A stretch of DNA of 64,000 nucleotides from Escherichia coli O127:H6 str. E2348/69 (GTDB lineage: Bacteria; Pseudomonadota; Gammaproteobacteria; Enterobacterales; Enterobacteriaceae): assembly GCF_000026545.1 (NCBI RefSeq), contig NC_011601.1. The stretch is one strand, 5' to 3'. Every line of letters begins with the position of its first letter. The first letter of the stretch is position 1. Position numbers and translations under genes: made by a program. Below, piece by piece: positions 36,340 to 38,109 of the stretch. The notes beneath the pieces were generated by a model that was not told where the DNA came from, made no database searches, and worked only from the letters and a program-made list of their open reading frames with translations.

Positions 36340-36534
36340 AATTCACCCGTAAAGCATCCATGGTTTGACGGTATGAAGAGTATACCTTTAAGGTAATACC
36401 GTCACCTGTACCGATGAAAAATGTGAGATAGAGTGAATAGATATGATGTGATATAAAGAAAAACCCTCTGTAAAAACAGAGGGTTGATTGCATAACTGAA
36501 TAGAAATGATTAGCTGTGAGTTAGCTGTACATCA
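36340..36534. other. Candidate prophage attachment region at the guaA 3' end
   Basis: Lies between int start and guaA stop; contains imperfect operator-like site (36381-36397) and local TTAGCTGT duplication (36511-36528); core not definable because the other prophage end is outside the window. Confidence 0.3.
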
Positions 36535-38109
36535 TTCCCACTCAATAGTTGCTGGTGGCTTGCCGCTGATGTCATACACCACGCGGGAAATACCATTCAC
36601 TTCATTGATAATGCGGTTGGAAACGCGACCGAGGAAATCGTACGGCAGATGTGCCCAGTGTGCGGTCATAAAGTCGATGGTTTCGACAGCACGCAGAGAA
36701 ACAACCCAGTCATACTTACGACCATCGCCCATTACGCCAACGGAACGTACTGGCAGGAAGACGGTGAACGCCTGGCTGACTTTGTCGTACAGGTCCGCTT
36801 TACGCAGTTCTTCAATGAAGATGGCGTCAGCACGGCGCAGCAGGTCACAATACTCTTTCTTCACTTCTCCCAGAACACGAACGCCAAGGCCTGGTCCCGG
36901 GAACGGGTGACGGTACAACATGTCATACGGTAGGCCCAGCTCCAGACCAATCTTACGCACTTCGTCTTTGAACAGCTCTTTCAGCGGTTCAACCAGGCCC
37001 ATCTTCATCTCTTTCGGCAGGCCACCCACGTTGTGGTGAGATTTGATGACGTGTGCTTTACCGGTTGCAGAAGCAGCAGATTCGATAACGTCAGGGTAGA
37101 TGGTGCCCTGCGCCAGCCACTTCACGTCTTCCAGTTTCAGCGCTTCTTCATCGAATACTTCAACGAAAACGCGCCCGATGATTTTACGTTTTGCTTCCGG
37201 ATCATTTTCGCCAGCCAGCGCTGACAAGAAGCGATCTTCTGCCGGTACGTGAACAATATTCAGACCAAAGTGATCGCCAAACATATCCAGAACCTGCTCT
37301 GCTTCGTTGAGACGCAGCAGGCCGTTGTCGACGAATACGCAAGTCAGGTTTTTACCGATAGCGCGGTGCAACAGCATTGCGGTTACGGAGGAATCCACGC
37401 CACCAGAGAGGCCGAGGATGACTTTATCGTCACCGACCTGCTCGCGGATGCGGGCTACAGCGTCGTCGATAATTTTCGCGGGCGTCCACAGGGCTTCACA
37501 CTGGCAGATATCACGCACAAAACGCTCCAGCATGCGCATACCCTGGCGGGTGTGAGTCACTTCCGGGTGGAACTGTACGCCATAGAAGCGTTTTTCTTCG
37601 TTGGCCATGATGGCAAACGGGCAGCTTTCGGTGCTGGCTACGGTGACAAAGTCGGACGGGATAGCGGTAACTTTATCGCCGTGGCTCATCCAAACGTCCA
37701 GCAGCGGTTTACCATCTGCGGTCAGCGCATCTTCGATACCGCGAACCAGTGCGCTGTCGTTTACGACTTCAACCTGCGCGTAGCCAAATTCACGTTCATT
37801 AGAGGCCTCAACGTGACCGCCCAACTGCATCGCCATGGTCTGCATGCCATAGCAAATGCCGAATACCGGTACGCCTGCTTCAAAGACATACTGCGGCGCA
37901 CGCGGGCTGTTTTCTTCGGTGGTGCTTTCCGGGCCGCCGGAAAGAATAATGCCGCTTGGATTGAAGTCACGAATTTGTGCTTCTGTCACATCCCACGCCC
38001 ACAGTTCGCAGTAAACACCCAGCTCACGCACGCGGCGCGCAACCAGTTGAGTGTACTGAGAACCGAAGTCCAGAATGAGGATGCGATGCTTATGAATGTT
38101 TTCCGTCAT
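36532..38109 (-). CDS. guaA: GMP synthase (glutamine-hydrolysing)
   Basis: Full-length 525-aa product matching E. coli GuaA. Confidence 0.95.

Follow-up and report, generated by a model that had tools for sequence, protein, structure and literature searches.

An epsilon15-like prophage very probably integrated at, and rebuilding, the 3' end of guaA in Escherichia coli O127:H6 str. E2348/69

The window, i.e., the whole stretch of 64,000 nucleotides analyzed here, belongs to contig NC_011601.1 of E. coli O127:H6 str. E2348/69 and includes guaA, encoding GMP synthase, on the minus strand (36532-38109, stop codon TGA at 36532-36534), and a gene of a tyrosine integrase of 417 aa with a GTG start, also on the minus strand (35086-36339, detected as an open reading frame and present in the RefSeq annotation). 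The guaA gene is intact, as had been stated in the initial annotation: its product of 525 aa possesses full-length GATase and GMP_synt_C Pfam domains, is equal in length to GuaA of K-12, differs from it in two residues and has the C-terminus PPATIEWE followed by the stop codon. The region 36340-36560 represents the int-proximal junction of a prophage, that is, the guaA-side one, corresponding to attR on the K-12 map. The adjacency of the prophage integrase to the guaA stop codon, noticed initially, stands, and this int/guaA junction is present in 567 of 5,426 complete E. coli genomes; such an adjacency is beyond chance. The distance given for it (190 bp) has to be corrected, since 192 nt separate the stop codon of guaA from the GTG of int.

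The prophage body occupies positions 1-36530 of the window and extends 3.8 kb past its left edge. Its RefSeq gene set includes terminase, portal, capsid, tail, tailspike, acyltransferase and a lysis cassette, comprising a complete podovirus set. In the structural module (positions 1-25000) 70-74% of the sequence aligns at 91-95% DNA identity to the Salmonella phages 65FD, PAT1 and SPN1S, while the int/attP region is 94% identical to that of SPN1S and 91% identical to that of epsilon15. Judged by this homology, the prophage is an epsilon15-like podovirus of the genus Uetakevirus. The podovirus gene order mentioned initially is supported by the Uetakevirus homology, and the epsilon15-type attB at guaA, also proposed there, is confirmed by the literature (PMC9782041; PMC8138268). 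Our search for publications linking E2348 with guaA or epsilon15 found none.

The integrase displays three domains, namely an arm-binding N-terminal domain (Arm-DNA-bind_3, PF13356, E = 2.9e-20), a core-binding domain (Phage_int_M, PF22022, E = 9.5e-12) and a catalytic one (Phage_integrase, PF00589, E = 2.2e-22). The motifs VRKSE, HDLRRT, LAHE and AVY (AVYNK) were recognized in its translation and align with those of a second P4-like integrase encoded in the window. The N-terminal domain matches the CP4-like integrase structures 3ju0 and 3jtz, the PDB matches covering the N-terminal and middle domains only. The int gene shares 94% DNA identity with that of SPN1S. By domain composition and similarity, the enzyme is assigned to the P4-like, or IntSXT, subgroup and within it to the ‘epsilon15 cluster’, which targets the 3' flank of guaA (PMC8138268). 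No sigma-70-like promoter for int was revealed by a scan of 36250-36650. The prophage also encodes, on the plus strand, a small DNA-binding protein of the AlpA family (32802-33053; PF05930, Phage_AlpA, E = 1.2e-5), which is a candidate excision directionality factor. In the Klebsiella relatives its homologue bears the annotation AlpA, and alpA is needed for excision in guaA-targeting PIMEs (bioRxiv 10.64898/2026.01.12.698999); by analogy, the AlpA-family protein may play the same role here.

The attachment core was mapped by comparison of both prophage junctions with the empty sites of K-12 and 4,570 other E. coli genomes and with the attP of seven free phages. The 16-mer ATCATTCCCACTCAAT (36531-36546) is the sole block common to both junctions, the empty attB and the free-phage attP. 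Read on the guaA strand (ATT GAG TGG GAA TGA T), it consists of the four codons for the terminal I-E-W-E of GuaA, followed by the stop codon and a single additional nucleotide. Phage homology stops at 36546 and host homology, traced in thousands of prophage-free genomes, begins at 36531; the position of the break between the two is constant, to the base, across thousands of genomes. The guaA-side junction in the window has the structure gctgtac ATCATTCCCACTCAAT agttgctgg. The second junction, located outside the window, was taken from the full E2348/69 record NZ_CP059840.2, to which the window is 100% identical; it reads ggtcaa ATCATTCCCACTCAAT tatttac and lies between a phage Rz-like gene and yfgI. 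The empty site of K-12, where yfgI directly adjoins guaA, reads gggtcaa ATCATTCCCACTCAAT ggtagc. The attP of epsilon15, SPN1S, PAT1, Tyrion and O157 typing phage 9 all carry ATCATTCCCACTCAAT, and in the free-phage attP the int-side flank matches that of the window and the opposite flank matches the yfgI-side junction. In the E2348/69 record the two cores are situated at 1328516-1328531 and 1368836-1368851, i.e., 40,320 bp apart, and the boundary of the prophage in this strain is fixed to the base.

In the phages phiV10, epsilon15 and vB_EcoP_ZX5 the published core is attgagtgggaatgatt, located 190 bp from int (PMC9782041), and for ZX5 it was checked by PCR and sequencing of attB, attL and attR (PMC9782041). 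The 16-mer ATCATTCCCACTCAAT is the reverse complement of attgagtgggaatgatt less its final base. The base to the left of the core is C in the present prophage and in SPN1S, and A in attB and in epsilon15; therefore the identity with attB here extends over 16 bp, not over the published 17-18 bp. Accordingly, 16 of the 17 bases of the published core are common with attB, and the core is 192 nt from the int start. The core AATCATTCCCACTCAAT, characteristic of Uetakevirus attP, was thus found at its expected place, about 190 bp upstream of int and at the 3' end of guaA.

The left window edge lies inside low-GC serotype-conversion genes, the second boundary is off-window, and within the 64-kb window no other copy of the junction repeat of at least 14 bp was detected, the longest match being a 13-mer at 2190. 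These features would be expected if the prophage were part of a larger composite island with its true boundary and attachment site elsewhere. Such an arrangement is highly improbable, as the second core copy is present 3.8 kb past the left window edge beside yfgI, followed by yfgH, yfgG and pdeF in the K-12 order, and the DNA between the cores consists of a single podovirus gene set. The alignment with prophage-free guaA 3' ends and with the other prophage end, by which the initial annotation had proposed to define the core, thus placed it at 36531-36546; the outcome named there as contradictory, a core elsewhere or a composite element, was not observed, the second core adjoining yfgI, the K-12 neighbor of guaA. 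The 13-mer at 2190, considered as a second att copy, was rejected as a chance match inside the tailspike gene. No tRNA gene that could serve as a target is present in the window. For the second island of the window, beside der, no bounding direct repeat of 12 bp or longer was found.

In E. coli the phage and host 16-mers are identical, so that the swap of one for the other is silent and no host base is visibly replaced. With these data alone, the insertion could be regarded as intergenic, just past guaA, with an incidental coding overlap and no phage contribution to the gene. The contribution becomes visible in Klebsiella. Empty sites of K. pneumoniae have the structure gggg ATTA(C/T)TCCCACTCAAT cgttgc, and guaA ends there with GA(G/A)-TAA. 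In two independent Klebsiella lysogens (MK422448 and MK416010), guaA carries the phage ATCATTCCCACTCAAT and ends with GAA-TGA, while the native ATTACTCCCACTCAAT version (ATTACTCCC...) has moved to the far junction in both of them. Since the host GAG-TAA or GAA-TAA has been replaced by the phage GAA-TGA, the phage supplies the stop codon of the gene, as had been implied initially, and the crossover must fall within TCCCACTCAAT (36536-36546); the phage sequence thereby becomes the functional end of a host gene in these lysogens. With the crossover inside the last guaA codons, as indicated by the Klebsiella lysogens, the intergenic variant is very improbable. As the two junction cores of E. coli do not differ from each other, the point of crossover is deduced from the Klebsiella relatives, which have an int of about 79% DNA identity. 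Wherever the exchange falls, guaA stays intact, because the phage core duplicates its last four codons and the stop codon.

A crossover within TCCCACTCAAT agrees with the inverted repeat of attP and with the core of GIsul2. In attP, a 10-bp inverted repeat surrounds a 7-bp spacer CCCACTC: the epsilon15 attP reads GTAAATCATT-cccactc-AATTATTTAC with a 9/10 inverted-repeat match, and the match in the present prophage is 8/10. The general pattern GTA(A/C)ATCATT - CCCACTC - AATTATTTAC conforms to lambda-type half-sites with an overlap of 6-8 bp. According to this pattern, GTACATCATT (36527-36536) is a putative core-type half-site of the integrase; its inverted partner AATTATTTAC, invariant in the seven phages, spans the core and the int-distal arm and lies partly off-window at the other junction. 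The proposed core, or crossover, of GIsul2 is GAGTGGGA (PMC9376610), and it coincides with the strand-exchange (overlap) region TCCCACTC (36536-36543), which we infer from the Klebsiella lysogens, the inverted repeat and the GIsul2 core. The cleavage positions are most likely to be located around TCCCACTC. Integration and excision at the guaA core would be performed by the prophage integrase, as may be concluded from the junction sequences and from the published experiments with ZX5 and GIsul2 (PMC9782041; PMC9376610).

The insertion brings into the vicinity of guaA not only a stop codon. The terminator scan revealed a rho-independent terminator hairpin on the minus strand at 36452-36485 (stem 36462-36471/36476-36485, then a T-tract), the sole terminator-like site in the interval, with the predicted RNA fold energy of -26.3 kcal/mol (z = -4.8). 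The hairpin is conserved in the seven phages, and in the free phage it is placed after the lysis genes and before int. We compared this guaA-downstream terminator hairpin, CCCTCTGT, between phage and host: the phage version AAAAACCCTCTGTAAAAACAGAGGGTT coincides with the hairpin of the empty site at 25 of 27 positions in E. coli and at 32 of 34 positions in K. pneumoniae; the score of this match of AAAAACCCTCTGTAAAAACAGAGGGTT with the native terminator was not reached by any of 2,000 shuffles. The gene downstream of guaA is yfgI in E. coli and a sulfatase-family gene annotated as phosphatase in K. pneumoniae; since the two species share the hairpin despite the different downstream genes, it looks like the native terminator of guaBA. 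After the insertion, the phage-borne hairpin is found 46 nt past the guaA stop codon, versus 24 nt natively. Judging from the sequence comparison, the insertion swaps the guaBA stop codon, 3' UTR and terminator for their phage versions.

On one side, the similarity of phage and host continues for about 70 bp beyond the core, and other guaA-targeting lineages carry different hairpins. The terminator copy suggests that an ancestral phage once acquired DNA from its host, which would be the simpler account, the direction of the transfer being judged from E. coli and Klebsiella only. The reverse reading, in which the flank of the host gene derives from a fossil phage arm, is less likely, although guaA is indeed accompanied by arm relics without int in E. 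albertii and some further genera.

From int to guaA, the interval of 192 nt contains, according to the alignment of the seven attP, arm repeats, the conserved block 36416-36440, the hairpin, the array AATAG/TTAGCTGT/TTAGCTGT and the core. The arm-type repeat cluster (36365-36416) includes GACGGTAT (inverted), TATACCTTTA, ATACCGTCAC and TGTACCGATG, and its repeat blocks are invariant across the seven phages. The 10-mer ATACCGTCAC is annotated as integrase-binding in Kropinski's record of epsilon15; the window contains 13 copies of it with no more than one mismatch, the expectation being 3.0, and five of them fall within 35818-36405. In the int-distal arm, which is off-window, GTACCGTTTTATATACCGTCAC is invariant in the seven-attP alignment. 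Thus, multiple arm-type repeats, as in lambda-type sites, are present in both arms, ATACCGTCAC being enriched and GTACCGTTTTATATACCGTCAC invariant. IHF sites are annotated by consensus in the epsilon15 record; the exact IHF consensus WATCAANNNNTTR is absent from 36340-36546. The assignment of proteins to the individual repeats, which would follow from these patterns, should be regarded as putative.

The initial annotation had mentioned a local duplication just downstream of the guaA stop at 36511-36528. The duplication does exist, though its coordinates should be corrected: the two copies of TTAGCTGT occupy 36510-36517 and 36521-36528, with a period of 11, and are preceded by AATAG at 36499-36503. 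Direct repeats of 8 bp or longer at offsets of 8-20 number 20 in the window, with 11.5 expected, and the TTAGCTGT duplication alone is not beyond chance. As an exact 8-bp direct repeat no more than 3 bp from the guaA stop codon, it resembles an insertion footprint, either a target-site duplication or the att repeat itself. The probability of such an origin is negligible: both copies are on the phage side, they are identical in the free phage SPN1S, the six other attP contain their TTAGCTRT variants (TTAGCTRT is present twice in all seven phages), the empty attB has neither copy, and the true repeat is the 16-mer ATCATTCCCACTCAAT, with its second copy 40,320 bp away. TTAGCTGT as the att repeat was thereby ruled out by the attP/attB comparison, which identifies the duplication as phage-arm DNA unrelated to the att duplication.

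The 40 nt adjoining the core show a phased structure, being 47% self-similar at a shift of 10/11 in the present prophage (p = 0.01). This 40-nt segment was surveyed for phasing in 22 guaA loci occupied by an int, the one in the window and 21 others from diverse proteobacteria. The mean self-similarity in these loci was 0.49 at the 10-nt shift, versus 0.21-0.29 at the other shifts from 5 to 15. Relative to shuffled sequences, the int-occupied loci showed an excess with a mean z of 2.9, versus 0.3 in 95 loci without an adjacent int (Mann-Whitney p = 1e-9, a value overstating the independence of the loci, which are related elements). The array is common to all the guaA-targeting elements sampled, which range from phages to GIsul2/PIME-like islands of alpha-, beta-, gamma- and delta-proteobacteria, and the array motifs differ by lineage (TTAGCT, GCCAG/GCCGG, GATAG). 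It is therefore the architecture with a phasing of about 10 bp, not the sequence, that is conserved beside the core on the int side, and by position and period the TTAGCTGT duplication is the local version of the phased array abutting the core. The array is probably protein-binding and would serve either an AlpA-type directionality factor or the arm domain of the integrase; the phased repeats beside the core are thus candidate directionality-factor sites. In the GCCAG and GATAG lineages the array motif is found also further out in the arm, in an arm-site-like manner, and the present phage has one motif, ATACCGTCAC, in the outer repeats and another, TTAGCTGT, in the inner ones.

As to the occupancy of the target, 4,570 of the 5,426 complete genomes of E. 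coli possess an uninterrupted yfgI-guaA site, and in about 855 the site is broken precisely at the core, so that approximately 16% of complete E. coli genomes have something inserted at exactly the 16-mer ATCATTCCCACTCAAT. The exact 16-mer occurs in at least 120 species of proteobacteria, Firmicutes, Bacteroidota, Actinobacteria and archaea. Among the matches listed, it constitutes the end of guaA in about 100 of 120 loci, and in at least 23 loci an Int homologue with 42-97% amino acid identity is present, nearly all of these homologues starting 200-320 bp past the guaA stop codon. As the codons of IEWE and the stop are represented by the identical 16-mer from proteobacteria to archaea, the integrase family would have a very broad choice of hosts; the use of the end of a widely conserved protein gene is a point already made for the epsilon15 integrase cluster. 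Site-specific integration at guaA is in itself known biology with a published site, guaA being a common site of phages, GIsul2, CMGI-3 and PIMEs (PMC8138268; PMC9376610; bioRxiv 10.64898/2026.01.12.698999).

Taken together, these data indicate, with a probability that we estimate at about 95%, that an epsilon15-like prophage of 40.3 kb has integrated at the end of guaA by means of its own Int, with the end of the gene being rebuilt. According to the proposed mechanism, the P4/IntSXT-type integrase would recombine a lambda-style attP, in which the core is positioned between imperfect inverted half-sites with arm-type repeats on both sides and a terminator, with the identical 16-bp sequence at the end of guaA. 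After the insertion, the guaA stop codon, the 3' untranslated stretch and the predicted terminator are all phage DNA, and the phage-borne hairpin would end guaBA transcription before int.

Three small internal ORFs of the prophage are annotated in RefSeq as partial pseudogenes, which raises the question of whether it is a fixed, defective remnant with a junction that no longer works as an att site. We consider this unlikely, given that the 16-bp cores at both ends, the full set of arm repeats and the integrase of 417 aa with its predicted catalytic motifs have been preserved, and that 200 bp of the int-proximal arm coincide exactly with those of the viable phage SPN1S. By these features the prophage may be presumed still able to excise. 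For annotation purposes, useful results are the base-exact boundary of the E2348/69 prophage and the reason for the survival of guaA. The copy of the terminator and the array of phased repeats extend the published 17-bp core modestly and could guide the engineering of att sites or the prediction of prophage boundaries; the chance that both have so far escaped description seems to us slightly less than even.

Among the known systems, epsilon15, phiV10 and vB_EcoP_ZX5 are the most similar to the present prophage, with the same core about 190 bp upstream of int and the same guaA 3' target (PMC9782041). The integrase family, gene order and arm elements are alike as well; the distinctions are the EPEC O127:H6 host and the closest relatives, which are Salmonella phages (91-95% DNA identity). 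The GIsul2, PIME and CMGI-3 islands, whose integrases are 42-60% identical in amino acid sequence in the sampled loci, share the guaA-end 16-mer, the alpA partner, and a hairpin and phased repeats in the arm next to the core. They are, however, mobilisable islands, not phages, with arm repeats of the GCCAG/GCCGG or GATAG type and a GCCCGC...GCGGGC hairpin, all unlike the sequences of the present prophage. Lambda-type attP are resembled in the inverted half-sites around a 7-bp spacer, the arm-type sites in both arms and the N-terminal arm-binding domain of the integrase; unlike in them, attP is located upstream of int, a P4/P2-like arrangement, and the predicted terminator lies inside the arm. 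Phage 21 and e14 insert into the 3' end of icd with a substitute gene end, leaving icd functional; using a different integrase and target, they replace about 165 bp with a diverged copy, whereas here only 13 coding bases and the stop codon are duplicated.

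The exact 16-mer ATCATTCCCACTCAAT, the att core of the epsilon15-like prophage, was sampled in 120 species (among the matches listed, L010-L129, loci from other genomes' contigs), which belong to several bacterial phyla and include some archaea; in about 100 of them it forms the 3' end of guaA. A related integrase lies just downstream in approximately one fifth of the sampled 16-mer loci among the matches listed. In Escherichia albertii (locus L029, 7105-7276), a conserved segment of ~72 nt, aaaaaGCCCGCagttaCGCGGGCttagagg...gccagacgcgaa, adjoins the guaA stop codon, being positioned between guaA and yfgI, with no integrase nearby, and the same segment occurs at the guaA stop codon, again with no integrase in the vicinity, in loci L030, L069, L078 and L079. 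Given its match to the int-proximal arm found in GIsul2/PIME-like elements (L022, L072 and L100), the segment looks like an arm relic remaining once the element was lost.

Other arrangements were also detected at guaA. In Collimonas sp. OK607 (L068), two copies of the core, at 3070-3085 and 8085-8100, lie beside the gene 5 kb apart with no integrase between them; each copy has a GIsul2-like hairpin arm in front of it, and TTACCGTCA is found twice in the inner flank. This double core could represent an integrase-less satellite or a part of a tandem array. In an ENA contig with a Klebsiella-type guaA (L132), a different element, accompanied by a response-regulator gene and an rve_3 transposase fragment, adjoins guaA through the junction ...cctACTCCCACTCAAT with TAG as the guaA stop codon, so that the site would have a third form of gene end.

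At the guaA junction of the window (36503-36538), the inverted repeat composed of GAAATGAT (36503-36510) and ATCATTCC (36531-36538) brackets the TTAGCTGT pair, and RNA folding predicts that its transcript forms a second hairpin, which includes the guaA stop codon. The counterpart of this hairpin is annotated in the epsilon15 record as an RNase III site. Within the int coding region, the arm-type 10-mer ATACCGTCAC is present in three exact copies (35818-35827, 36071-36080 and 36161-36170), two of which encode the repeated peptide RDGI; in epsilon15, two of the copies inside int are annotated as integrase-binding. Such an arrangement could reflect either extension of attP into int or autoregulation.

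The window begins inside a low-GC (33-41%) prophage module (1-3284), comprising a partial acyltransferase gene (40-525) and a tailspike gene (555-3284), a make-up typical of the O-antigen serotype-conversion cargo that epsilon15/phiV10-like phages carry. Within the prophage, RefSeq annotates a pseudogenic tRNA-Gly at about 21033-21145 (record 1343917-1344029), where related phages carry tRNA-Arg; an ARAGORN search of the whole window found no tRNA.

A second P4-like tyrosine integrase (53825-55096, minus strand), 27% identical to the guaA-side one, starts 216 bp past the stop codon of the housekeeping gene der (55313-56824, minus strand), with a hairpin between them, as at guaA. Behind it lies a low-GC (33-40%) island, located at roughly 47.9-55.1 kb in the window, for which a search revealed no flanking direct repeat of at least 12 bp. 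The island carries an anti-phage Hailong system, consisting of halA (49726-50847) and a nucleotidyltransferase gene (49065-49724).
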